Below, one piece after another: positions 46,990 to 59,309 of a DNA stretch of 64,000 bases. Position 1 is the stretch's first letter, and each line of letters opens with the position of its first letter. The stretch spans positions 32,001-96,000 of the forward strand of contig JAFGGO010000114.1 of the NCBI GenBank assembly GCA_016930515.1. Direction: 5' to 3'. Below the pieces are notes generated by a model. That model did no database searches and was not told where the DNA came from. It saw only the letters and a program-made list of their open reading frames with translations. A program made the translations under genes and the position numbers. Source of the DNA: Promethearchaeota archaeon (lineage in GTDB: Archaea > Asgardarchaeota > Lokiarchaeia > Sigyniarchaeales > SOKP01).

Positions 46990-47559
46990 TTAAAATAAAA
47001 ATCTCTCTTTATTTTTACTTGCTTCTTGCAAGTTTTTTTGGAGTCTTTTATAAGTGCTTAATTCTAATTCCTGATACAATCCATCAGATTCTTCGATGCT
47101 TAATTGGTCTAGATATCCTTCCTTGACTAAAAAAGTCATTACATTTAAATTTCCAGCTCTAAACCTTTTCATGATCTCTTGCTTGAATACTTGTTTAGCC
47201 TTTAAATCTCCTGCATTAGAGAGTTTTTTAAGTAATGGAAACGCAAGGTTAGAGTGAAGTATTTGAGTGTTGTAATCGTTTTCGTACCAAGCCTGTAAAT
47301 TCGATGCGTGAGCCCAGAATTCCGTATCAGGCGATATAATAGTTGAAATATCTTCATCAAGCTCAAGAGAACGATCTAATTTGTCAATTTGGACATCAAT
47401 ATTAATTTCATCTAAGGGCGCGGAATTAACTTCGCTTTGCTTTTCTGAAGAATTCATTAAGAGATACTTACATTGCAAGAACCTCCTGTTATTAATATAT
47501 ATTACTGTCTGTTCGTTTTCCAGCTTGAGCTTTAAAATAGGGGTTATCGAGATTTCCAT
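46990..47559 (-). CDS. Stand-alone copy of the N-terminal domain found on Loki-type LRR proteins
   Basis: LKLE...TVIYIN..RFLQCK...EFWAHASNLQAWYENDYNTQILHSNLAFPLLKKL aligns with the N-terminus of 59696..61159. Confidence 0.85.
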   Translation of the reverse strand: MEISITPILKLKLENEQTVIYINNRRFLQCKYLLMNSSEKQSEVNSAPLDEINIDVQIDKLDRSLELDEDISTIISPDTEFWAHASNLQAWYENDYNTQILHSNLAFPLLKKLSNAGDLKAKQVFKQEIMKRFRAGNLNVMTFLVKEGYLDQLSIEESDGLYQELELSTYKRLQKNLQEASKNKERFLF

Positions 47560-47566
47560 CGTGATT

Positions 47567-48253
47567 TCAGGTTCGTTTGGCGATCGTGAGCATTATGATG
47601 TAATCCGCTACTTCTTCGGCGTTGTCAGTAATTGCTTCCATCGCAGATATGCAATTGTGAATTTCGATGGCACTAAATGGATTGACATCGGGATGATTAG
47701 AAACCAAATTTCTATAAACATTGACCTTCAAATCGTCGACCTTATGTTCTAGAAAATTTACTTCTTCCCCTAATTGATGTATCTCTTCTTCTTCTTCTGC
47801 GTGTATCAATCTGTCAACCATTAATGTAAGTTTTTTCACGCAATCTACGGATATATTAGCCATCTTCATTAAATATTCGTGAACATCTTTATGTAACTTT
47901 AAGAAATCGCCATAATTCATGTAAGTAAGGATTCTTGCGCTAGCATTTGCAGCATTAGCGACATCGTCAATTCTCTTAACGAGATGCGTGAGATTCTCTC
48001 TAATTACAACATTTATTTCTGCCTTGGAAAGCCCATTTAGGATATTTCTTCGAATGCCATCGGCTTGATGTTCTAACTCGTTAACCCTAAAGAAAACTTT
48101 CAAAGCCAAGTCAACATCCTTTTCTTCTATCAGAAAGGACAATCCTTTTTCAAATTCCACGACGCATTCTAAAACTTTCTGAGCGTGAATTAACGTCTTG
48201 TTAATTGCGCTTTCTTCATTCCTAGATTTAAACCATTCAAATAAAGAACTCAT
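47567..48253 (-). CDS. DUF47 / PhoU-like phosphate transport regulator
   Basis: LEHQADGIRR, IDDVAN, LEHKVDDL and ITDNAEEVAD motifs. Confidence 0.92.
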   Translation of the reverse strand: MSSLFEWFKSRNEESAINKTLIHAQKVLECVVEFEKGLSFLIEEKDVDLALKVFFRVNELEHQADGIRRNILNGLSKAEINVVIRENLTHLVKRIDDVANAANASARILTYMNYGDFLKLHKDVHEYLMKMANISVDCVKKLTLMVDRLIHAEEEEEIHQLGEEVNFLEHKVDDLKVNVYRNLVSNHPDVNPFSAIEIHNCISAMEAITDNAEEVADYIIMLTIAKRT

Positions 48254-48289: not shown

Positions 48290-49513
48290 TCATTCCAATT
48301 TAAATACTTCCTTTATATATTCTTCTCCGGGATGTTCGAATAAAATTCCCAATTCCTTAGGAAAATAAACGGTTACTTCTGAATTTTCAACAAAATTTTT
48401 ATGAATCTCAGAAGTCGCAAGCGTAGATATGATGATTAATTTTTCCGTTCCATTTAATTTGCAAAGAACTTCAAATCGATAAAAAGCACCCATAAATTTT
48501 CGACGCTGAATCCTACCGAATAATGAATTACGCTTCTCGACCGTGCGGTCTCCTAATCGTATTTTGATGTGATTCGCTCTTACAACTAAGAGTACTTTTG
48601 TACCATGTTCGAACTTTTCATATAGTTCTTTTCTAATATAAGTTGCAATAGGTTTGCTTGGACCCAAATCCACTAGTATCGGATATGAATCTTGTTGTAA
48701 TTCTGCAAAAAATTTATCCCCTCTTTTTGATTTCGAATGGATATCCCAAGTTGGTTCTTGATCTTTCAAGCAGGTACCATCAAAACAATTAATTTCGCTT
48801 AAAAAGTTTGCTACGAATAGGTCGTTTGGCCTGTAATAGATTTCATAAGGAGTTCCGATTTGCATTACCTTTCCTTCGTTAATCACGGCAATCTTATCAG
48901 CAACCATCATGGCTTCTTGTTCTTCATTAGTCACATGTACGACAGTGAGTTGTAATTGAGCTGATTTTGCCATTTGAAGGAGTTCCCTCCTCAAGCTCAT
49001 CCGTAGTCCAGCATCTAATGCTTTTAACGGTTCGTCTAAAATCAACGTTTTTGTTTGCTCCAAATTCATAAGTGCCCTGCAAAGAGCGACTCTTTGTTGC
49101 ATCCCACCGCTCATTTCTTTTGGGAGCGCTTTATTTCTTCCTGTTAATAAAGTCATCATGAGGACTTGCTCGACAATAGTTTTAGTTTGATTTTTATCGC
49201 GAGCGTGCACTCGACTACTATAAGCAATATTGTCATATATTGACATGTGAGGAAAGAGGGCATAATTTTCGAACATAAACCCAATATTTCGTGCGTCTGG
49301 TGCAAGTTTAGTTACATCTTTTCCGTCAAAGTATACTTTTCCTGAATCTGGTTTGATCAAACCAGCAATCAATTTCAATAGAGTAGTTTTGCCAGCTCCT
49401 GTTGGTCCCAGCAAGATGAAATATTCGTTATCCTTAATTTTTAAGGAGACATTGTCAACTGCCTTAATTTTTTTATATGATTTCGAGACACTTCTGAGTT
49501 CTATAGTAACCAT
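48290..49513 (-). CDS. ABC importer ATPase (PotA/MalK-like), H-loop His replaced by Asn
   Basis: GPTGAGKTT, MSGGMQQR, LILDEP, HVTNEE; C-terminal TOBE-like region. Confidence 0.93.
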   Translation of the reverse strand: MVTIELRSVSKSYKKIKAVDNVSLKIKDNEYFILLGPTGAGKTTLLKLIAGLIKPDSGKVYFDGKDVTKLAPDARNIGFMFENYALFPHMSIYDNIAYSSRVHARDKNQTKTIVEQVLMMTLLTGRNKALPKEMSGGMQQRVALCRALMNLEQTKTLILDEPLKALDAGLRMSLRRELLQMAKSAQLQLTVVHVTNEEQEAMMVADKIAVINEGKVMQIGTPYEIYYRPNDLFVANFLSEINCFDGTCLKDQEPTWDIHSKSKRGDKFFAELQQDSYPILVDLGPSKPIATYIRKELYEKFEHGTKVLLVVRANHIKIRLGDRTVEKRNSLFGRIQRRKFMGAFYRFEVLCKLNGTEKLIIISTLATSEIHKNFVENSEVTVYFPKELGILFEHPGEEYIKEVFKLE

Positions 49514-49525
49514 AACAGATCACCT

Positions 49526-50671
49526 TTATATGAGAGATAATTCATTTAATAAGTCTTTTGGAGCTTCATATATATGTATATCGTCCTTATGAATTCCTAC
49601 TAAAAGTGCTTCTCCTGGAGCAAAATTTTCTTCAAATGTGCCAGGTTTAATAGATATAAAAATGTCGCCACTATCCAAGATAAAATAGAACCTCTTTGTC
49701 GCTCCAATAAATCTGGACGATTCGAGCTTGGCGTTAAATATCTGGATCATCTCCCAATCGTGTGGACTAGTTTTAAAATCGTAATCCTTAGGAAATATAT
49801 AAACGTCTTCGTAACGAAATGCAATAACCACATTGCTATCAAGATCGTATTTATTATTCTTATTATTACATACCAAGCTAGGGCCTCCCAACCTAAGCCT
49901 CACATTCATCTGATTTTCATCAAACAATTTTAAAACATATCCCTGGAGAAAGTTGGTTTCTCCTAAAAAATTTGCAACAAATATGCTATTAGGGCGTTCG
50001 TACAGTTCATAAGGTGATCCTTGCTGAAGTATTTTTCCACCTCTCATTATAATGATTTGATCTGCGATGGCCATTGCTTCTTCTTGATTATGCGTAACAT
50101 GAATTGCCGTGAGTCCTAAGTCTTTAATGAGATTCCGTAACTGATGTCGAAAGACATTCGAAACTTTTGGATCTAAGGATCCCAATGGTTCGTCCATTAT
50201 CAGTATTTTTGCCCCAGTTGCAATCGCTCGGGCAATTCCCAACTTTTGTAATCCAGGGTTCCCAAATATTGAGGGAAATTCATCGGTATACTGAGATAGT
50301 TCCACCGTTTTCAAAGCTTCTTCTGCTTTCTTAACAATGACATCGTCAGAATATCCTCGCATTTCCAAGCCAAAGGTCACATTTTCCCAGACGGTGAGAT
50401 GCGTAAATATTTCAAAATTTTGGAATATAAAACCCATATCCCTGTCTTCTGGAGGAATTCCACTCATGTCTTTTCCATCAATCTTAACCACTCCTTTTGT
50501 AGGTTTTTCCAATCCGGCGATCATTCTTAATGTGGTAGTTTTTCCACAACCGCTTGGACCAAGGAGGAAAACAAAATCACCATCTTTTATTGTTAGTGAT
50601 ATATCTTCAACCGCTACTACTTTTCCTTCGTTAAAAGTTTTTGTTATATTCGAAAGTTCTATCATTGGCAT
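49526..50671 (-). CDS. ABC importer ATPase with degenerate signature motif
   Basis: GPSGCGKTT, LIMDEP and HVTHNQ are intact. The signature position reads IFGNPGLQK instead of LSGGQ. Confidence 0.93.
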   Translation of the reverse strand: MPMIELSNITKTFNEGKVVAVEDISLTIKDGDFVFLLGPSGCGKTTTLRMIAGLEKPTKGVVKIDGKDMSGIPPEDRDMGFIFQNFEIFTHLTVWENVTFGLEMRGYSDDVIVKKAEEALKTVELSQYTDEFPSIFGNPGLQKLGIARAIATGAKILIMDEPLGSLDPKVSNVFRHQLRNLIKDLGLTAIHVTHNQEEAMAIADQIIIMRGGKILQQGSPYELYERPNSIFVANFLGETNFLQGYVLKLFDENQMNVRLRLGGPSLVCNNKNNKYDLDSNVVIAFRYEDVYIFPKDYDFKTSPHDWEMIQIFNAKLESSRFIGATKRFYFILDSGDIFISIKPGTFEENFAPGEALLVGIHKDDIHIYEAPKDLLNELSLI

Positions 50672-52330
50672 TTAAAATACGCCTCCCTTCTTTTTGACTG
50701 CACGTAACGCAAAGATTAAGAATGCCCCGAAGATTATCACCAGGATGCTGGCAAAAACAGCACTCTGCCACGCAGTTGCTTCGACCCAATCAACAATCAA
50801 GACGGGAACCGTGCGAACACTCCCCATGACGACGATTGTTGCCCCAGTTTCTCCTAAAGAACGCGTAAAGACCATAATGGCACCTGCAATTATTCCCTGC
50901 TTGATGTTTGGAAGAGTTATTCTCCGAAAAACGGTTAAATCACACGCCCCTAGCGTTCTTGCAGCTTCCTCGACGCCCCTGTTAGAACCCTCCAAAACCC
51001 CTATGATCGGACGAACCATATAGGGAAATGTAAAACATATATGGACGAAAAGTATCATTAAAAAACCAGGGGTGAGTAATCCCAGTCCTGCGGGACCCCA
51101 AAAGAGGAAAAGTGCAAATCCTAATGCAGCCGAGGGTATTGCTACAGGTATATCAAGTAAGGTATCTAAGATAGTAATTACCTTACCCCATTTACGCCTG
51201 GTAATGATATAGGCGAAAGGTATTCCAAAAACGATATTTATTGCCACTGCTAAAGCGCCAATTTGAATCGAATAGATCATGCTTTTATAGAGGAAAACCC
51301 ACTTTTGATCTTCACCTCCAAGTTCTTCAAAAGCAGATCCTCCCGAGAATTGAGTGATAACATAGAACGCGGGTATTAAAATCATTATAATTAAGATTCC
51401 CATTGTTGCGATATCTCTAAAATGGCGAAGGTATTTATGACTTAGTTTTTTTTCTAACTTTGGTATTACTTTTTTTAAAGGAAATCCAATTTTCCTCGTA
51501 AAAAATTTTATCGAAAAGAGCAATATTAAAGAAACCAATATCAATATTGCAGCGACGAGCGATGCAGATGGCAAGTCTAGCTGTCTTCGAAATCCCACGA
51601 TTAATATGGGTGCAGTTTCAACAAGACCAGATATGATAATCGTTGCTCCTGTTTCTCCAAGACTTCGTGTGAAAGAAAGAATGGCCCCAGCAATTATCCC
51701 TTCTTTCATCATTGGGAGCGTTATAGTCCTGAATACTGTTATTCCAGAAGCCCCTAGCGTTCTTGCTGCGTCTTCGTAGAGCGTATCGGTTTTTTCCAGG
51801 ACGATTTTCATATTGCGAACAATATAAGGGAAAGTAAAAACGATATGCCCTAGTATTATTAATTCAAACCCCGGAACGATTCCAAAAATGCCCCAAAACA
51901 ACATTAAAGAAAAGCCAAGGGTGCTCGTTGGAACGGCCATTGGTAAGTCGACTAGTGCATCGAGAATTTTTTTACCTCGAAAGTTATAGCGAGTAAGGAT
52001 AATTGCCGTGGGAAATGCTATGATTAAGTCAAAAATTACGGCGACCGTGGCAATAAAAAATGAGTTTCCTAAAGCTTCAAGAATTCTTTGCCACTTTAAA
52101 TCCCCTAATAAAGGATCGTTAAAGACCGTTTGGTCAATAGAAGAAGTGTTTATGAAGATTGTCGAGAAAATATTGATGATTGGTCCTATAATGATGAGGA
52201 AGAAAAAGACTATAGTGATAGCATCAAGAATCTTTCTATATAATGGTTTTGAGAAAAGTTTATCAACTCTTAAGCTAAGAGAAAGTTGATTTCCATTGGT
52301 TTTTTTTTGTTTGTTTAATTTCGCTAACAT
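50672..52330 (-). CDS. ABC importer permease with two fused TM domains (ModB/CysT/FbpB-like)
   Basis: Two EAA loops (EDAARTLGA, EEAARTLGA) and two TRSLGETGAT motifs. Confidence 0.93.
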   Translation of the reverse strand: MLAKLNKQKKTNGNQLSLSLRVDKLFSKPLYRKILDAITIVFFFLIIIGPIINIFSTIFINTSSIDQTVFNDPLLGDLKWQRILEALGNSFFIATVAVIFDLIIAFPTAIILTRYNFRGKKILDALVDLPMAVPTSTLGFSLMLFWGIFGIVPGFELIILGHIVFTFPYIVRNMKIVLEKTDTLYEDAARTLGASGITVFRTITLPMMKEGIIAGAILSFTRSLGETGATIIISGLVETAPILIVGFRRQLDLPSASLVAAILILVSLILLFSIKFFTRKIGFPLKKVIPKLEKKLSHKYLRHFRDIATMGILIIMILIPAFYVITQFSGGSAFEELGGEDQKWVFLYKSMIYSIQIGALAVAINIVFGIPFAYIITRRKWGKVITILDTLLDIPVAIPSAALGFALFLFWGPAGLGLLTPGFLMILFVHICFTFPYMVRPIIGVLEGSNRGVEEAARTLGACDLTVFRRITLPNIKQGIIAGAIMVFTRSLGETGATIVVMGSVRTVPVLIVDWVEATAWQSAVFASILVIIFGAFLIFALRAVKKKGGVF

Positions 52331-52352: not shown

Positions 52353-53492
52353 TTATGCTGTAGCTTTACAAAGATACCACAAATCAGGAATTTTAAGTAA
52401 GACATTTCCACTATTAGGCGTATTAAGTTCTGGCACGCTAATATTATAACGAATTCCGTGAGATTCATAATTAAATATAGATGGATCAAGTGGAATCGTA
52501 GAATCAATGGGTCTAAACCCATATCGCATAGCAGAAATAACCGTATCTCTTTTGTTTAGAAAATCAAGAAACGCTTCTGCCACATTTCTCTGTTCTGGAG
52601 AGATCCAATTGGCATTTAACACGCAAAATGGATGATCGCTGTATAATGTACCTTCTTCGGGGTAAATGGCAATGATCTTGCCACCCGTGGCCGAATTGGA
52701 AATATCACTCACGAGATTTTCGTATAAAAAAGCAATATTTAAAGAATCTGGGCCCCCATCCTTCATATATCGAGACAAGAAACCAGTTGATTTTCCATAT
52801 AATACGGCACTTGATTCGAATTCTTTTATCCATTTTTCGACATCAGGATTGAGAAGGTCTTCCATCGTGAGATTTTCTGATGCCTTTTCTGAGGCTGCCG
52901 CTAAGGCCATAATAGTTGTCATGAATCCCGAATTAGATAACCTTGGATCTGTATGAGCCATTCTCATAATTACGCTAGGATCAAGGTTAAGGCGCCTTAT
53001 ATCTGCAAGGCTTCTTATAGCATGTGTTTGGTTGAAAGTTTCCCAAGTAGCTATTACTATAGGAGAATATATGATTTTAATTGCTTCGTCTATTTTCACA
53101 AGATCGTCTCCTTCGGTGTAATCCTTCCATTTCGTGTTGAGAAAAGGCATCCAAATCGAACTCGCAGGACTCCAAATCGTTGGATGGATCTCATCATTAA
53201 GAATACTTATAATGGAATCCGAAGAACCATATGGATGCATTTCAATCGTAATTTTTTCCTCAGGATGTTCTCTAGACCATTCTTCTAAAAAATTATTGTA
53301 AGCTACGGTCATCCAACTCGCTTTTTCTGAACTATATATGATTGTTATGTGTACTCCGCCTTCTCCACCAAGAAGAACTGCGTTTGTAATAAGATCTCCA
53401 GAAACGAATCCAATAATAAATAGAAGAAATAAGGATCCAATGCTCTTTTTTCTGATTTTTCGAGAGCTATTTTTTTTTTTCTTAATTCTCAT
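52353..53492 (-). CDS. Membrane-anchored extracellular solute-binding protein (class II fold)
   Basis: N-terminal TM anchor; SSEK, PTIWSPASSIW, TDPRLSNSG, AIYPEEGTLYSDHP and YGFRP motifs. Confidence 0.88.
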   Translation of the reverse strand: MRIKKKKNSSRKIRKKSIGSLFLLFIIGFVSGDLITNAVLLGGEGGVHITIIYSSEKASWMTVAYNNFLEEWSREHPEEKITIEMHPYGSSDSIISILNDEIHPTIWSPASSIWMPFLNTKWKDYTEGDDLVKIDEAIKIIYSPIVIATWETFNQTHAIRSLADIRRLNLDPSVIMRMAHTDPRLSNSGFMTTIMALAAASEKASENLTMEDLLNPDVEKWIKEFESSAVLYGKSTGFLSRYMKDGGPDSLNIAFLYENLVSDISNSATGGKIIAIYPEEGTLYSDHPFCVLNANWISPEQRNVAEAFLDFLNKRDTVISAMRYGFRPIDSTIPLDPSIFNYESHGIRYNISVPELNTPNSGNVLLKIPDLWYLCKATA

Positions 53493-53868: not shown

Positions 53869-54561
53869 TTATAGAACATTAGAACTTGTTAACAATTGCA
53901 TTATATAATCAGCAACAATTTCGATCGAATCAGAAATCGCTTCCATTATATCCATTGTGTTTCCAAATGTAAAAATAGTGAAGGGATTCACATTATATGG
54001 CGTTTCTTGAAGGCTTTTTCTGAGCTTAATGTTTATTATATCTATCTCGTGTTCGAGGAGGTTGATTTCTTTTGCAAATGCTTTTACTTGTTGTCGATCG
54101 CCTAATAAATTAATAACGATTTTATCCAAGTATTCGGCGCATTTCACGGTCGTGTTCATCATCAAGTCGATTAATTTAATTGTTTCTTCGCTACTTTGCT
54201 CCCAGAATTTTATTGGAATCGTTGCTATTCTTCTCGCTACTCCCGTTGCGCAATTTGCAACATCATCTAATCTTTTTATTAGATGCGATAAATCTATCCT
54301 CACACTTGGGTTTAATTCGCCTTTTGATATGCCAGTTAATATTTCTCTTCGAATACTATCAGCTTCCCCTTCGAAAACATCCACTTCGTGAAAAATATCA
54401 TAGCACTTCTCGAGATCTTTTGATTTTAACAATAAAATCATTCCCTCGTTCAATTTGAACACGCATTCTTGCACTTTTTGAGCATGTTTTATTGCTTGTT
54501 CTAAAACGGATGTTGCTGTCTTTTTTTTAAAATATTCTATCAATGAACCCATATTATTCAC
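53869..54561 (-). CDS. DUF47 / PhoU-like phosphate transport regulator
   Basis: FEGEADSIRR, LDDVAN, LEHEID and ISDSIEIVAD motifs; downstream of pit. Confidence 0.92.
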   Translation of the reverse strand: MNNMGSLIEYFKKKTATSVLEQAIKHAQKVQECVFKLNEGMILLLKSKDLEKCYDIFHEVDVFEGEADSIRREILTGISKGELNPSVRIDLSHLIKRLDDVANCATGVARRIATIPIKFWEQSSEETIKLIDLMMNTTVKCAEYLDKIVINLLGDRQQVKAFAKEINLLEHEIDIINIKLRKSLQETPYNVNPFTIFTFGNTMDIMEAISDSIEIVADYIMQLLTSSNVL

Positions 54562-54605
54562 ATCGCTTCCTATTATTCCTATATTTTTTTACTTTAAATA
54601 TTTAT

Positions 54606-55628
54606 TTAATGAAATCCATTTACATAAAACCCAAAATAGACTAACCCTCCTACAAGTGCAGAGATCGGTAAGGTTAGAAACCAATACAATGCCATTTTTC
54701 CAATTCCTCTATAATCAACTTCTTGTTTCTTAGCTACATTCAATCCAATTATACAAAACACGATCACGTGACTATGACTTATTGGTATGCCTAAAGGAGT
54801 TACCACAAACAACACAATAAATGTTGCAAGTTGAAGTATGAAACCTTCGCTTGGGCGCGCATCGGTTGTTTGGCTGGCTAAGTTTTTAATAACAAAACGA
54901 CCTGCAATATATATACCTAAGAGTGCAAAAATTCCAAGAAAAACTTTCCAAAACCAATACGCACCTAAATTTAAGTAATTTTCATCGAATAAAGCATAAA
55001 TTATTCCCAAAGCTTCTGCGGAATTTGCACCCGTATATATAGACACGCCAAATACTGCAAGTAATAATGCCCATGAGAATGAATTTTCGGATTTTTCTAT
55101 AGAATTCAATCCTTTAAATCTATTTAAGAAATACTTGGCTATGATTTTATAAAAAAGATAAGTTAAAAGAAACCCAACCACCGGACTTAGGAGCCAACCA
55201 ATACCAATCGAAATCATTATTTCCCAATTGAATGCTCCAGATATATTTATGTTCTCGAGTGAGATAAAAACAATAATAACGCCAAAAATCGAACCAAATA
55301 GTGAATGTGTCGACGATAAAGGTATTCCTGAGAAACTTCCGATTATTAACCAAACAATTGCGCTTATTAGAACGCTTAACAGCATATATATGGTGTATGT
55401 AACATCTTCACCTACAAATTTCTTACCTACCGTGCTGGCTACTTCTTCTGAAAGAAATATAGTACCAATTGCTAAACCAACACCACCTAATATAAGAACG
55501 CTTTTAAATTTGAGGGTCCCCGCAGCAGCTAAAGGTGCAGGTGTCTCATCGTTTGCTCCAATGGAGAAAGAGAGGAAGAGAGCAAGTAAGATTAATACTA
55601 TAACTATGTAATTACTTAACTCTTCCAT
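54606..55628 (-). CDS. pit: PiT family inorganic phosphate transporter
   Basis: GAND, GIPLSSTH, GANSAE and GIPISHSH motifs. Confidence 0.92.
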   Translation of the reverse strand: MEELSNYIVIVLILLALFLSFSIGANDETPAPLAAAGTLKFKSVLILGGVGLAIGTIFLSEEVASTVGKKFVGEDVTYTIYMLLSVLISAIVWLIIGSFSGIPLSSTHSLFGSIFGVIIVFISLENINISGAFNWEIMISIGIGWLLSPVVGFLLTYLFYKIIAKYFLNRFKGLNSIEKSENSFSWALLLAVFGVSIYTGANSAEALGIIYALFDENYLNLGAYWFWKVFLGIFALLGIYIAGRFVIKNLASQTTDARPSEGFILQLATFIVLFVVTPLGIPISHSHVIVFCIIGLNVAKKQEVDYRGIGKMALYWFLTLPISALVGGLVYFGFYVNGFH

Positions 55629-55646
55629 AAAAAGCTACCGTAATAA

Positions 55647-56327
55647 CTATTTAAAAATTAGATATTTAGTCGATAAGAACTGAATGTATTCCGAAAAGTT
55701 CTTGATGTGATCAGCCATCATCATTATATCTTCTATAAGCTCTTTTAAGTAAAGATATGTACGACTTAAATAATCCATATCGTAATTCCAAAGGCGATCT
55801 AGGAGATTCCATTCGATTTTTCGCATTTTTCTTCGTTCTTCTTTGATTTCTTCGCAAGTTTCATATGCTTTTTCAAGATCAATGCTTACAAGCTTTACTG
55901 CGCTCGTTATTTTATTCGATAAATCCTTTAAAGAATTTTTTATATTAGTAATACCATTCTTAAATTCATCATCGGGAAAAATAACTTTATACAGGAGCAA
56001 TCTATGAGCCACAAATTCTCCTATATCCTTTATTTCGTTAATCTTAGAAAATAACTTGAGTCTATCTGCTTTTGTAAATGAAGATTTTTTTGATCTATAT
56101 AACCTTGATTCAAAAGACTTCTTAATTTCTTCTTCTTTTGCCGTTTGAATAACTTCTTTAAGACTCGAGGCAAATTTGTCGAAGTCTTCCTGAATTAACC
56201 ATTCAATTCCTTCCATGAGTTTAATGTTTTGATCGTTAATGCTCTCCATAAATATATGAGTTAGCTCATCGATATTTAACTTTTTAAACTCTTTTTCTGA
56301 ATTGGGTAATGTCATTCTAAATACCAC
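55647..56327 (-). CDS. Divergent DUF47/PhoU-like helical protein
   Basis: FTKADRLKL, EERRKMR and IEDIMMMADHIKN motifs; lies between phoU and pit. Confidence 0.7.
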   Translation of the reverse strand: MVFRMTLPNSEKEFKKLNIDELTHIFMESINDQNIKLMEGIEWLIQEDFDKFASSLKEVIQTAKEEEIKKSFESRLYRSKKSSFTKADRLKLFSKINEIKDIGEFVAHRLLLYKVIFPDDEFKNGITNIKNSLKDLSNKITSAVKLVSIDLEKAYETCEEIKEERRKMRKIEWNLLDRLWNYDMDYLSRTYLYLKELIEDIMMMADHIKNFSEYIQFLSTKYLIFK

Positions 56328-56496
56328 GATAGTAGGAATTAATTTTTTGCCTAATTATCATCGCATATATCCGTGCTCAATTATTTTTAGGTTCTGATGT
56401 TAATATATTTCTAAAAATTATATTGTTTAAATTATTATAGGTTTCTTAACTCCTTAAAATTTTTTTTGTCTAAAGCAGTTTTAAATAAAGGTATTC

Positions 56497-57495
56497 TTAA
56501 TTCATCAAGTAATCAATGATAAGTTCAGTAATGTCAGAAGAATATTCCCCTGCTCTTCTAATGCTTTCAATGATATAACTTAAAGCGATGGTTAGGTGTA
56601 AATTACCATTGCTTGTTAATTGATTTATTTCTTCACAAGCAGCGTTCAATTCTTTTACGGATTCAATATTTTGATTTGACATGTTTATGTTCTTTTGAAG
56701 TAAAGCGTCTAAACTATTATTTAATAATTTCATTGATATTTTGCTAGCGCGAGATATATCATCAATAGTATTTGAATCTATTTCATATTTAATCAAATTT
56801 TTCACATTTTTCGCTAAATTTACGCCGTGATCAGCAATGCGTTCTAAAAGTCTTCCAATTAAATGATAAAAATGCGCTTCTTCTAATGATACACCCATTT
56901 TTTGAGCAAGTATGATATCTCTCAAGGCTATATTAGTCTGCCTTGCGATTAACCATTGTAATCTATCGATATCATCATCACGTTTAGCAATGTCATCTGC
57001 CAATTCTTGGTTACTCGTTCTTAAAGCTTTAATTGCGTCCAGATGCATGTTTTCAGCAATGATGTACATTCTCTTGATTGTTTTATGGAAAGGCATCTCG
57101 TTTGGATTTAGTAAATCCTTTAATGTAATCTGATTTGAGGTTTCTTCAATTATTTCGGGACCAATCACAATTTGAGTGAAATATATAATCTTTTCCCTGG
57201 TTTTTGATTCAATTTTTCTGCTTGATTTAATAACTAGTTTTGTATACCCCATAATATAAGCCCCTATCAGTAGTCTAAATAAAAAATCATTATCTTTTAC
57301 CTCGTCGAAATCGATATCTTTTTTTCTCTCCACGCCACGTGGGTCTACTTGTGGAGTGATTAACAAATTGCCATCGGGTTGAGTAATGATACCTAAGAGA
57401 TCGTTTTTCTTGATAGAGCGCTTTTTAATCCACTCTTTTGGGAGACTCACAATATAAGACGATCCTCCAGTCTGTTGAACTTTCCTCGTTTCCAT
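56497..57495 (-). CDS. phoU: Archaeal phosphate uptake regulator (AbrB N-terminus + PhoU domains)
   Basis: METRKVQQTGGSSYIVSLPKEW, RDDDIDRL and LERIADH motifs. Confidence 0.95.
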   Translation of the reverse strand: METRKVQQTGGSSYIVSLPKEWIKKRSIKKNDLLGIITQPDGNLLITPQVDPRGVERKKDIDFDEVKDNDFLFRLLIGAYIMGYTKLVIKSSRKIESKTREKIIYFTQIVIGPEIIEETSNQITLKDLLNPNEMPFHKTIKRMYIIAENMHLDAIKALRTSNQELADDIAKRDDDIDRLQWLIARQTNIALRDIILAQKMGVSLEEAHFYHLIGRLLERIADHGVNLAKNVKNLIKYEIDSNTIDDISRASKISMKLLNNSLDALLQKNINMSNQNIESVKELNAACEEINQLTSNGNLHLTIALSYIIESIRRAGEYSSDITELIIDYLMN

Positions 57496-57710
57496 TTAAA
57501 TACCACTAATTATTATATATATACAAGTTATTCAAACTATATATCATATATATAGAATAATACATTACTTAAGAGAATATCGAGTCTAAAAAGAATTCAC
57601 TAAGTTATTATATTAATTTTCATTTTTTTCAAATCTATATATTAGGACTAAAAAGTATAGAGTTAATTATATAAGATTTTATAGAGTTAAATTTGATAAA
57701 AGGCAGGTAT

Positions 57711-59309
57711 CTAATAAAGTGGAATTCCAACAACACTTTTATGATATTTCTTTCCAAGCATTTTCATCAATGTGGGTACAATATCGGTCGTTTTACAGAA
57801 TGGAATCCTTTTTTGCAGAATCTCTTCAGATCCCCCAATGATAAGAGGCACTATTGAGCTTTTTCTGAGGCCTATATCGTGCGTGTAATGCGTATAACGC
57901 TCGTTTTTCCCATGAGACACCTTGTATAAAGTCCTTCCAAGCGTGCTCACGATTACATCGGCGCTTCTCGAGTTTTTGAAGTGGCGTGGGATGAGGTCAG
58001 GATACATGGCATGGTCTAAGTGGTATGTATATTCTAACCACTCGTCAATAGAGTGATACTTTCCATCTATCAATCTTGCAGCCTTATCGTCGTTGAAATA
58101 GCCAAACACATCGTTATTATCGTCTTCGCTTGAATATTTAGTTTTATACTGAGCTCCAGTGCCCTTATATTCGATAGAACCAGTAAGGATTTTGTGATTA
58201 TTAGGATTTTTCCTTTTTAAATAAATCGTTCCTTTTTTATAGGTATTGTCGTCTCCTCGAAAATACATTAATTGCACTCCTTTTAGTTGAAATATTTCTT
58301 GGATCATATCTTTTTTTTTGGGACCAAAATTCTGAAGTTCCTTCAGGGTAGGACGAGGCCAATAATTGCCATTTCTAAGATTACTAGAACCCTTGAAATG
58401 AAAATGCCCAACACTCGCAAATTCAGCGATGTTAACTGTTCCTTTGGGATTTTTACGCTCGTGATAATTTTTCAAACCCGTCCTTGAGTAAAAATGAGAT
58501 ATGTTTCCTATCTCCTTGACTCGATAATTACCATGGTCTGATGTGATTGCTATGGCTGTATCGTTTAAATAACCCAATTTATCGAGTTCCTTGATTAAAA
58601 CGCCAATTAATCTATCTATCAATAAAATATTAAGTTTATATAAAGAACTATCATATCCAAAAGTGTGCATCAAAATATCGGGCGTCATAAACCACAGGTT
58701 GCTTCCAATCGGTGCTTCATTGGTTTTAAAATACTTTTTTGGATTCTTGAAAGTATCTATGAGTTTTCTAACCACGATTCCATTTGCGTGAGCCATGAGT
58801 CTTGCAACATGTTTTTTTCGAAGAAACCCAAGGGTTAACAATTCGTAATATAAAGCGAGCCTTATCTTGTTTTTTGGAAAGATATAATTAGCTCCTCGTG
58901 AAATTAGTTGAGTTATACTCGCTCGATTGCCCTCCCCGATCATTTCCAACCAAGTTTGGCAATTCGTACCCAAATCAGAGTTCAGCTTATATATTTGAAG
59001 GAGCTCGTTAGTTCCAATTCCTCCATAATCCCTTAATTCGGGTGGTGTCGTCGCTCTATCCATCCAATGATAAGCGGTCACGCCATGGCTTGGCTCGTTC
59101 CTAAAATCACCCGTGTAAGTACCAGTGAGAATTGTAGGGTGCGTGGGATATGTGACTGAGGGAAAATCAGTACAGCAATTCTTTGAATAAATTCCAGTTT
59201 CTAATAGGTTTTTAAAATTCGGTAATAATCCTTTTTCGACAAAAGAAAAAAAATGACTTGCCCTTACATCGTCTATAATGCAAAAAATGACCCTATTTAT
59301 TTTATTAAT
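57711..59309 (-). CDS. Alkaline phosphatase superfamily (nucleotide pyrophosphatase/phosphodiesterase-like) enzyme
   Basis: The frame extends 228 nt upstream of the ORF-track start to include IIDDVR and FPSVTYPTHPTILTG (Thr nucleophile). Also PDILMH, TSDHG and THD. No ATG/GTG/TTG precedes the IIDD motif, so the start is probably ATT 59309 after SD GGTGA. Confidence 0.88.
   Translation of the reverse strand: MNKINRVIFCIIDDVRASHFFSFVEKGLLPNFKNLLETGIYSKNCCTDFPSVTYPTHPTILTGTYTGDFRNEPSHGVTAYHWMDRATTPPELRDYGGIGTNELLQIYKLNSDLGTNCQTWLEMIGEGNRASITQLISRGANYIFPKNKIRLALYYELLTLGFLRKKHVARLMAHANGIVVRKLIDTFKNPKKYFKTNEAPIGSNLWFMTPDILMHTFGYDSSLYKLNILLIDRLIGVLIKELDKLGYLNDTAIAITSDHGNYRVKEIGNISHFYSRTGLKNYHERKNPKGTVNIAEFASVGHFHFKGSSNLRNGNYWPRPTLKELQNFGPKKKDMIQEIFQLKGVQLMYFRGDDNTYKKGTIYLKRKNPNNHKILTGSIEYKGTGAQYKTKYSSEDDNNDVFGYFNDDKAARLIDGKYHSIDEWLEYTYHLDHAMYPDLIPRHFKNSRSADVIVSTLGRTLYKVSHGKNERYTHYTHDIGLRKSSIVPLIIGGSEEILQKRIPFCKTTDIVPTLMKMLGKKYHKSVVGIPLY

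Follow-up and report, generated by a model that had tools for sequence, protein, structure and literature searches.

A reciprocally asymmetric ATPase pair in an archaeal ABC importer, with one predicted consensus ATP site

A stretch of 64,000 nucleotides from a Promethearchaeota archaeon (assembly GCA_016930515.1, contig JAFGGO010000114.1, positions 32,001 to 96,000; the whole stretch is referred to here as the window) encodes on its minus strand an ATP-binding cassette (ABC) importer with two different ATPase subunits, ATPase A (alpha) and ATPase B (beta). The two have lost complementary parts of the nucleotide-binding machinery. We consider it probable, at roughly 0.72, that A and B form an obligate heterodimer that drives the importer with one consensus and one hydrolysis-impaired ATP site; less securely, the transported substrate is probably anionic and linked to phosphorus.

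Reciprocal motif losses in the ATPase pair

The motifs of both proteins were read from the translations and then checked at the level of codons (Table 1), and the assignment of the motif columns held up against ∼140 canonical CysA/PotA/MalK-like representatives and was also checked against E. coli LivG/LivF and OppD/OppF. A and B are ABC ATPases by homology, with matches to ABC_tran (PF00005) of 99 and 113 bits, and each is present in a single copy in the 4.0-Mb genome. They are paralogues that share 38% identity over the nucleotide-binding domain, and neither alone is a complete canonical ATPase. The first-pass annotation, made from the sequence of the window, had described A as carrying the Walker A and Walker B motifs and the H-loop His with FGNPG in place of LSGGQ, and B as carrying MSGGM with Asn in place of the H-loop His. 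Translations and codons bear out both descriptions, and add a third deviation that had been missed, the replacement of Gln by Glu in the Q-loop of B, which belongs to the same composite site. An LSGGM signature also occurs in relatives that are otherwise fully canonical.

In every solved ABC dimer, ATP is sandwiched at each site between two domains, one providing the Walker A/B, Q-loop and H-loop motifs and its partner the signature (PMC3971661). By this head-to-tail geometry, site 1 of an A/B dimer joins the catalytic motifs of A to the xSGGM of B and is consensus, and site 2 joins the altered Q-loop and H-loop of B to the lost signature of A. All of the deviations fall in site 2 in 45/45 Asgard gene pairs, so the earlier proposal that both defects meet in one site of the dimer and leave the other consensus holds well beyond the window. 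An A/A dimer would have two sites without a signature, and in a B/B dimer both sites would lack the Q-loop Gln and the H-loop His; neither homodimer would have a complete site. The motif pattern is far beyond chance.

Conservation in Asgard archaea

The motif states of the window are shared by its closest relatives. Among the 120 nearest homologues of A, with identities of 72-88% and drawn from many independent assemblies that bear Loki-, Thor-, Odin- and Hermodarchaeota labels, the signature position reads FGNPG in 118 and FGDPG in 2, and the catalytic motifs are all intact. The 120 nearest homologues of B are uniform, with FMFENY, VTN (the H-loop Asn) and L/MSGGM in 120/120. A scan of 400 genomes of the phylum recovered A orthologues in 53 of the 134 genomes of the same family and further orthologues, 40-54% identical, from other orders and classes.

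Across the 45 Asgard pairs, alpha keeps the Q-loop Gln, the Walker B Asp-Glu and the H-loop His in every case and the Walker A Lys in 44, and none of its signatures contains Ser-Gly-Gly. The variants found instead are FGNPG, WGNGD, LS[TAVD]P[ED], LNTPE, LTAPQ and VAAAD. Beta has xSGGM in all 45, and its Q-loop position is occupied by Glu (42) or Ala (3) and never by Gln. The beta H-loop position holds Asn in 38 pairs, Gln in 4 and His in 3, with the catalytic Glu lost in 4 and the Walker A Lys in 1. The alignment of Asgard gene pairs had been suggested in the first-pass annotation as a check; in it the deviant states co-occur, and orthologues with canonical motifs are not what it returned. Residue by residue, the invariant columns are K44, Q84, D160, E161 and H194 in 36 alpha orthologues, where the signature positions vary, and S135, G136, G137, M138, Q140 and R141 in 33 beta orthologues, where the catalytic Glu and the H-loop position vary. 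The invariant parts, which are the catalytic residues of A and the signature of B, oppose each other in the consensus site, and the parts that drift or are replaced oppose each other in site 2. No other observation argues as strongly for an obligate heterodimer with a single working site as this meeting of the invariant parts in the consensus site.

Within the family, the median pairwise ratio of nonsynonymous to synonymous substitution (dN/dS) is 0.08 in alpha and 0.11 in beta, and the residues that replace the canonical ones are fixed as well. Because orthologues share the motif states, dN/dS is ∼0.1 and the replacement residues are conserved, the asymmetry is maintained by selection and is not decay, as had been argued from the matched degeneration in the window. 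In a quick maximum-likelihood tree, whose deep nodes are weak and which places canonical outgroups beside the Asgard alpha clade, the Asgard alpha clade (Shimodaira-Hasegawa-like approximate likelihood ratio test, SH-aLRT, 98) and beta clade (97) branch congruently, and the genes have therefore been inherited as a pair. Of 46 Asgard loci, 45 have the two genes side by side. Nearly all of 20 distant Asgard loci show the order binding protein, fused permease, A and B, with a DUF47 gene usually adjoining the pair, and binding-protein orthologues lie upstream of the permease in most orthologous loci. This genetic evidence of adjacency, co-divergence and reciprocal conservation supports a heterodimer.

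Operon and substrate

The pair belongs to a tight minus-strand operon in the window that runs from a substrate-binding protein through a fused permease, ATPase A, ATPase B and a PhoU_div/DUF47 protein to an open reading frame (ORF) of 189 aa. The intergenic gaps measure 0-36 nt, and 12 nt separate the two ATPase genes (Table 1). The features of a type I importer are present, namely BPD_transp_1 domains, EAA loops and a co-encoded extracytoplasmic substrate-binding protein. The two halves of the permease are non-identical, and an EAA-type coupling loop is legible in the translation of each. An AlphaFold model of the binding protein (predicted local distance difference test, pLDDT, 91) gives a class II fold, anchored in the membrane by an N-terminal helix at residues 18-42, and a fold search brought up cluster-D binding proteins of a general kind only. 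The binding protein has no NCBIfam match and no sequence relative in the PDB. The DUF47 protein is inferred to be a candidate regulator of the importer. The 189-aa ORF, which has no Pfam or NCBIfam match and no counterpart in the 20 distant Asgard loci, is possibly the last gene of the operon.

Table 1. Positions of the importer genes, the ATPase motifs and the upstream genes in the window, followed by the E. coli genes used for comparison.
Feature	Position	Strand	Remarks
Substrate-binding protein (operon gene 1)	52353..53492	-	379 aa; Pfam SBP_bac_11, E 1.8e-15
Fused permease	50672..52330	-	552 aa; two BPD_transp_1 halves (PF00528 matched in two stretches)
ATPase A (alpha)	49526..50671	-	381 aa; catalytic motifs intact, signature lost
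ATPase B (beta)	48290..49513	-	407 aa; signature kept, catalytic residues of Q-loop and H-loop replaced; TOBE-like domain at the C-terminus
PhoU_div/DUF47 protein	47567..48253	-	228 aa; PF01865, E 1.4e-22; 36 nt downstream of ATPase B
189-aa ORF	46990..47559	-	7 nt downstream of the DUF47 gene
ATPase A Walker A, GPSGCGKTT	50534..50560	-	codon-level check
ATPase A Q-loop, Gln84	50420..50422	-	codon-level check
ATPase A signature position, FGNPG replacing LSGGQ	50252..50266	-	codon-level check
ATPase A Walker B, Asp-Glu	50189..50194	-	codon-level check
ATPase A H-loop, His194	50090..50092	-	codon-level check
ATPase B Walker A, GPTGAGKTT	49382..49408	-	codon-level check
ATPase B Q-loop, Glu82 replacing Gln	49268..49270	-	codon-level check
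ATPase B signature, MSGGM	49100..49114	-	codon-level check
ATPase B Walker B, Asp-Glu	49031..49036	-	codon-level check
ATPase B H-loop, Asn196 replacing His	48926..48928	-	codon-level check
DUF47	53869..54561	-	Pfam
PHO4/PiT permease	54606..55628	-	Pfam
DUF47	55647..56327	-	Pfam
AbrB/MazE-PhoU fusion regulator	56497..57495	-	Pfam
NPP-type phosphodiesterase	57711..59081	-	Pfam
E. coli K-12 livG, livF	L152:2725-4207		read directly for motif states

The operon lies directly downstream of a phosphate-related cluster on the same strand, assigned by Pfam (53869..59081). With the operon's own copy, three DUF47 paralogues occur in 9 kb. Most Asgard loci also have a DUF47 gene adjoining the ATPase pair, as do loci of Nitrososphaeria, Methanobacteriota and other archaea. 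The importer probably takes up an anion tied to phosphorus metabolism, either a phosphate-like oxyanion or an organophosphate; this is the least secure part of our reading and is held with modest confidence. Membership in the Pst system was rejected, as the PstC and PstA models gave 79 bits versus 196 and 69 versus 193, and the PstB model gave 135.5 bits for B versus 343 and is not among the matches listed for A. None of the named ATPase equivalogs (PotA, CysA, UgpC, WtpC, ModC, MalK, PstB and PhnT2) is reached at cut-off by A or B, whose best NCBIfam scores are 286 and 290 bits for PhnT2, versus a cut-off of 458.

Comparison with known transporters

A close parallel to the A/B pair is found in the E. 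coli LIV-I importer. Read in the same alignment columns, LivG resembles A in keeping Gln and His and having LAYGD at the signature, and LivF resembles B in having a signature, MSGGE, together with a Q-loop Gln replaced by Glu and an H-loop His replaced by Gln. LIV-I is likewise a binding-protein-dependent system with two separate paralogous ATPases, and it has the same reciprocal asymmetry, down to the change of Gln to Glu. However, LivH and LivM belong to BPD_transp_2 (PF02653), whereas the permease here is PF00528. LivG and LivF also lack C-terminal TOBE-like domains, and A is 27% identical to LivG and 24% to LivF. Given the different permease family and the identity of only ∼25% between LivG/LivF and A and B, the likeness is judged convergent from sequence. 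Membership in the HAAT (LivHMGF-type) family was rejected on the PF00528 permease, versus PF02653, and on the ATPase identity of 24-27%. No paper discussing the asymmetry of LivFG was found in the literature searched, the coverage of which was incomplete.

A degenerate ATP site has also been described, by sequence analysis, in the fused ATPases RbsA and NupO of binding-protein-dependent importers (PMC11466899). In these B. subtilis proteins, unlike A and B, both domains are in one polypeptide and the permease is from a different family. Their degeneracy includes loss of the Walker A Lys and so probably abolishes ATP binding, whereas B keeps this residue.

Heterodimeric exporters provide the better-known examples, and reviews present degenerate sites as an exporter feature; such a site binds ATP but does not turn it over, and it keeps the domains joined (PMC3971661; PMC7756269). 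TM287/288, TAP1/2, CFTR, BmrCD and PatAB resemble the A/B pair in having one consensus and one degenerate composite site, but their fold is that of exporters, with fused transmembrane domains, and they lack a binding protein. The usual hallmark in the exporters is an altered signature combined with Asp in place of the Walker B Glu, while the changes here are in the Q-loop and H-loop, with complete loss of the signature.

Among type I importers, ModBC-A, CysPTWA, WtpABC, PotABCD and MalFGK2 have ATPases with C-terminal regulatory domains, as here, and they include the closest sequence relatives of the ATPases (1v43, PotA 8y5f and ModC 3d31) and of the permease halves. These importers use an ATPase homodimer with two consensus sites, unlike the A/B pair. 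E. coli OppBCDF, whose permeases are of the BPD_transp_1 type, resembles this importer in having two distinct ATPase genes, but there both ATPases match the consensus, with FSGGM, Gln and His in OppD and FSGGQ, Gln and His in OppF. PstSCAB-PhoU is similar as an ABC importer in a phosphate gene cluster with a PhoU-family gene following it. It differs in that the binding protein here is not PstS-like and the partner is PhoU_div/DUF47 rather than PhoU.

These comparisons narrow an earlier claim. The first-pass annotation had called the asymmetry unusual for a type I importer, which stands for importers with BPD_transp_1 permeases and MalK/CysA-type ATPases but does not stand for binding-protein-dependent importers generally, given LivG/LivF and RbsA/NupO (PMC11466899). 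In the literature searched, with incomplete coverage, we found no described BPD_transp_1, MalK/CysA-type importer with a degenerate site. What is new here is that the reciprocal pattern occurs in an importer whose ATPases are of the MalK/CysA type and whose permeases are type I (BPD_transp_1); the principle is not new.

Proposed mechanism and alternative readings

In the mechanism that we propose, the motor of this binding-protein-dependent ABC importer would be an obligate heterodimer of two paralogous MalK/CysA-type ATPases. The consensus site, formed by Walker A, the Q-loop, Walker B and the H-loop of A with the xSGGM of B, would hydrolyse ATP and so power transport. Site 2, formed by Walker A/B, the Glu of the Q-loop and the Asn of the H-loop of B with the FGNPG of A, is predicted to be hydrolysis-impaired and to act as a non-catalytic hinge or regulatory site. 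It would probably still bind ATP, as in TM287/288 or CFTR, because B keeps the Walker A Lys and an aromatic A-loop residue. The fixation of the replacement residues in the family argues for a retained non-catalytic role and not for simple neglect. We infer both the heterodimeric assembly and the loss of hydrolysis at site 2 from the motif patterns.

The assembly was also modelled as a complex of A, B and 2 ATP, which scored 0.79 compared with 0.01 for the best control; the score mark is one reached by 58/80 solved complexes and 2/110 mismatched pairs. At least 83% of the contacts agree between runs, with a partner pLDDT of at least 80. Both the D-loop and the H-loop make contacts at the interface, and the C-terminal domains are swapped in a MalK-like manner. 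This shows likeness only, since MalK, ModC and similar dimers are already solved and the model may be reproducing them.

Several observations weigh against our reading, in its mechanistic part and in its assignment of the substrate. The complex model does not separate A/B from A/A or B/B. Within the family of the window, B keeps the Walker A Lys, the Walker B Asp-Glu and the D-loop, which leaves room for residual hydrolysis at site 2. In one genome (G279, L041:5910-7268), the alpha gene is broken after about residue 330 and continues into unrelated sequence, and a search of this 63% complete genome with the beta profile found no beta orthologue. The broken gene retains the degenerate signature LSTPE, and the locus is probably a disrupted operon. 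As to the substrate, the folds nearest to the binding protein are those of sulfate-binding protein, AfuA/VcA0625 (hexose-phosphate), PotD/F (polyamine) and FutA (iron), at 12-16% identity, with sulfate-binding protein the nearest (14-15%). The permease reaches its highest scores against models for sulfate, molybdate and tungstate permeases, passing TIGR00969 (sulfate; 248.7 versus a cut-off of 240) and TIGR02141 (molybdate; 221 versus 183) only when both halves are summed. It falls below the cut-offs of WtpB, CysT and CysW, as the ATPases do for CysA, WtpC and ModC. A homologous locus in Nitrososphaeria (L065:1-3200) adjoins a gene for a tungsten-type aldehyde:ferredoxin oxidoreductase, which hints at a link to tungstate or molybdate in that lineage. 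Finally, a genuine PstB is encoded on another contig of the genome and a PstS-like protein is also encoded elsewhere, and the importer is therefore an additional system and not a replacement for Pst. Further neighbours in the Nitrososphaeria locus are a ThiS/MoaD-like gene and a radical SAM/SPASM gene.

The retained residues of B bear on an alternative in which A and B do form a heterodimer but both sites are competent, with the unusual residues providing a lineage-specific alternative chemistry. The Walker A Lys (44/45) and Walker B Asp-Glu (41/45) of B would fit this, as would the tight conservation of the replacement residues within the family. E. coli LIV-I functions as an importer with the same residue classes, and we found no paper in the literature searched showing that its second site is inactive. 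However, the signature of A is not fixed across the Asgard archaea (FGNPG, WGNGD, LSxPE, VAAAD), and this variability argues that a γ-phosphate clamp has been lost and not that a new one has been gained. The catalytic Glu, kept in A in 45/45 pairs, is missing from B in 4/45, and the Walker A Lys of B in 1/45. In ABC ATPases such as HlyB and MalK, hydrolysis is greatly reduced when the H-loop His or the signature Ser/Gly is lost. We regard two competent sites as unlikely, though deserving of some weight.

The linkage to phosphate genes raises another alternative, that B is an ATP-binding sensor or regulatory partner, possibly together with DUF47, in a complex that would chiefly sense phosphate status or provide a gated pathway, with little net transport driven by ATP. 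The consistent association of a PhoU-like DUF47 gene with the pair and the phosphate regulatory cluster in the window agree with this idea, and so does the presence of a separate genuine PstB and a PstS-like protein in the genome. Yet the importer set is full, from the binding protein to a two-half permease with EAA loops, and one composite site is consensus and conserved, which a role as sensor only would not require. This makes a mainly sensory complex rather improbable.

It is also conceivable that A and B each form homodimers as alternative energisers of this or of other permeases. ATPases that are shared in this 'multitask' manner exist in other importer families, and the complex prediction is compatible with homodimers. 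Such an arrangement would leave A2 with two signature-less sites and B2 with two sites lacking the H-loop His and Q-loop Gln. It would also have to accommodate the co-divergence of the genes and their adjacency in all but one of the Asgard loci, and the invariance of the B signature and the A catalytic residues is explained only if these face each other. Separate homodimers are thus a slim prospect. Strain-specific decay or sequencing error was rejected as next to impossible, as the states are identical in 120/120 homologues of each ATPase in independent assemblies and dN/dS is ∼0.1.

Distribution in archaea

The ATPase pair can be followed beyond the main Asgard clade, with the asymmetry less pronounced. 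Among the 50%-identity clusters nearest to A, many further non-canonical signatures come ahead of the canonical LSGGQQQRVALARA set, and the named members of these clusters are Hod-, Hermod- and Heimdallarchaeota, Nitrososphaeria, Thermoprotei, Thermoproteota and Methanobacteriota. The loci outside the main Asgard clade combine the same kind of fused permease with two ATPase genes. Most of them also have a PhoU_div gene, and SBP_bac_11 is called adjacent in some only; in L065 and L069, no binding-protein gene was called beside the permease. In these loci (L054 and L065-L072), the B-like gene precedes the A-like gene. The shared operon content suggests that the alpha-beta pairs of Asgard archaea and the beta-alpha pairs of other archaea may go back to one duplication, a single origin that is likely although the deep nodes of the tree are weak.

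The asymmetry is milder in Nitrososphaeria, Thermoprotei, Methanobacteriota and Thermoplasmata than in Asgard archaea. In Methanobacteriota (L069), a metagenome contig (L071) and Thermoplasmata (L072), the A-like signature is LSGGA and the B-like protein is canonical. Thermoprotei (L068) and an Asgard outlier (L054) have LSRGA, again with a canonical B-like partner. An A-like signature of VSGGV is paired with an H-loop Asn in the B-like protein of L070, and ISSRG with an H-loop Gln in that of the Nitrososphaeria locus L065. From this graded series across L054, L065 and L068-L072, it seems that the signature of the A type was lost first and that the H-loop and Q-loop residues of the partner followed later, more than once and with different residues (Asn, Gln). 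A scan of the genome collection with the alpha alignment, using generic Walker A and H-loop patterns, listed mostly canonical bacterial ATPases; among the matches listed, only L072 (Thermoplasmata) and L073 (Bathyarchaeia) were relevant, and none of them placed the system in a cultured model organism.

The type I importers MalFGK2 and ModBC are textbook two-site machines, and work on degenerate ATP sites has dealt almost exclusively with exporters. A conserved type I importer with one consensus site would allow testing of whether one ATP per cycle is sufficient for binding-protein-dependent uptake. The range of orthologues from near-symmetric to fully asymmetric is a natural graded series for studying how and why a site is given up, and a comparison is possible with LivG/LivF, in which the identical pattern seems to have drawn little comment. 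The operon is also the mark of a widespread, uncharacterised archaeal uptake system linked to PhoU-like DUF47 proteins. More speculatively, this could be the first MalK/CysA-type importer lineage of the type I fold to run on a single hydrolytic site, having evolved stepwise in archaea from near-symmetric forms (Methanobacteriota, Thermoplasmata) to the lopsided Asgard form and convergently with LivG/LivF. Site 2 would then be a permanently ATP-loaded hinge, and a docking or control point through which DUF47 couples uptake to phosphorus status. We offer this scenario as a tentative one that, taken whole, we would not expect to be correct in every part.

Two individual genomes show further variation in the operon. 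In G057, the alpha gene (G057:C73:2474-3613) is 73% identical to A of the window, which is as near as the members of the window's own family, although the genome belongs to another Asgard family (f16); the gene could have been transferred horizontally, or the bin could be contaminated. G128 carries two complete copies of the operon, on contigs C6 (L043) and C3 (L044), and their ATPase signatures differ, with LSVPD in one and LSDPE in the other.

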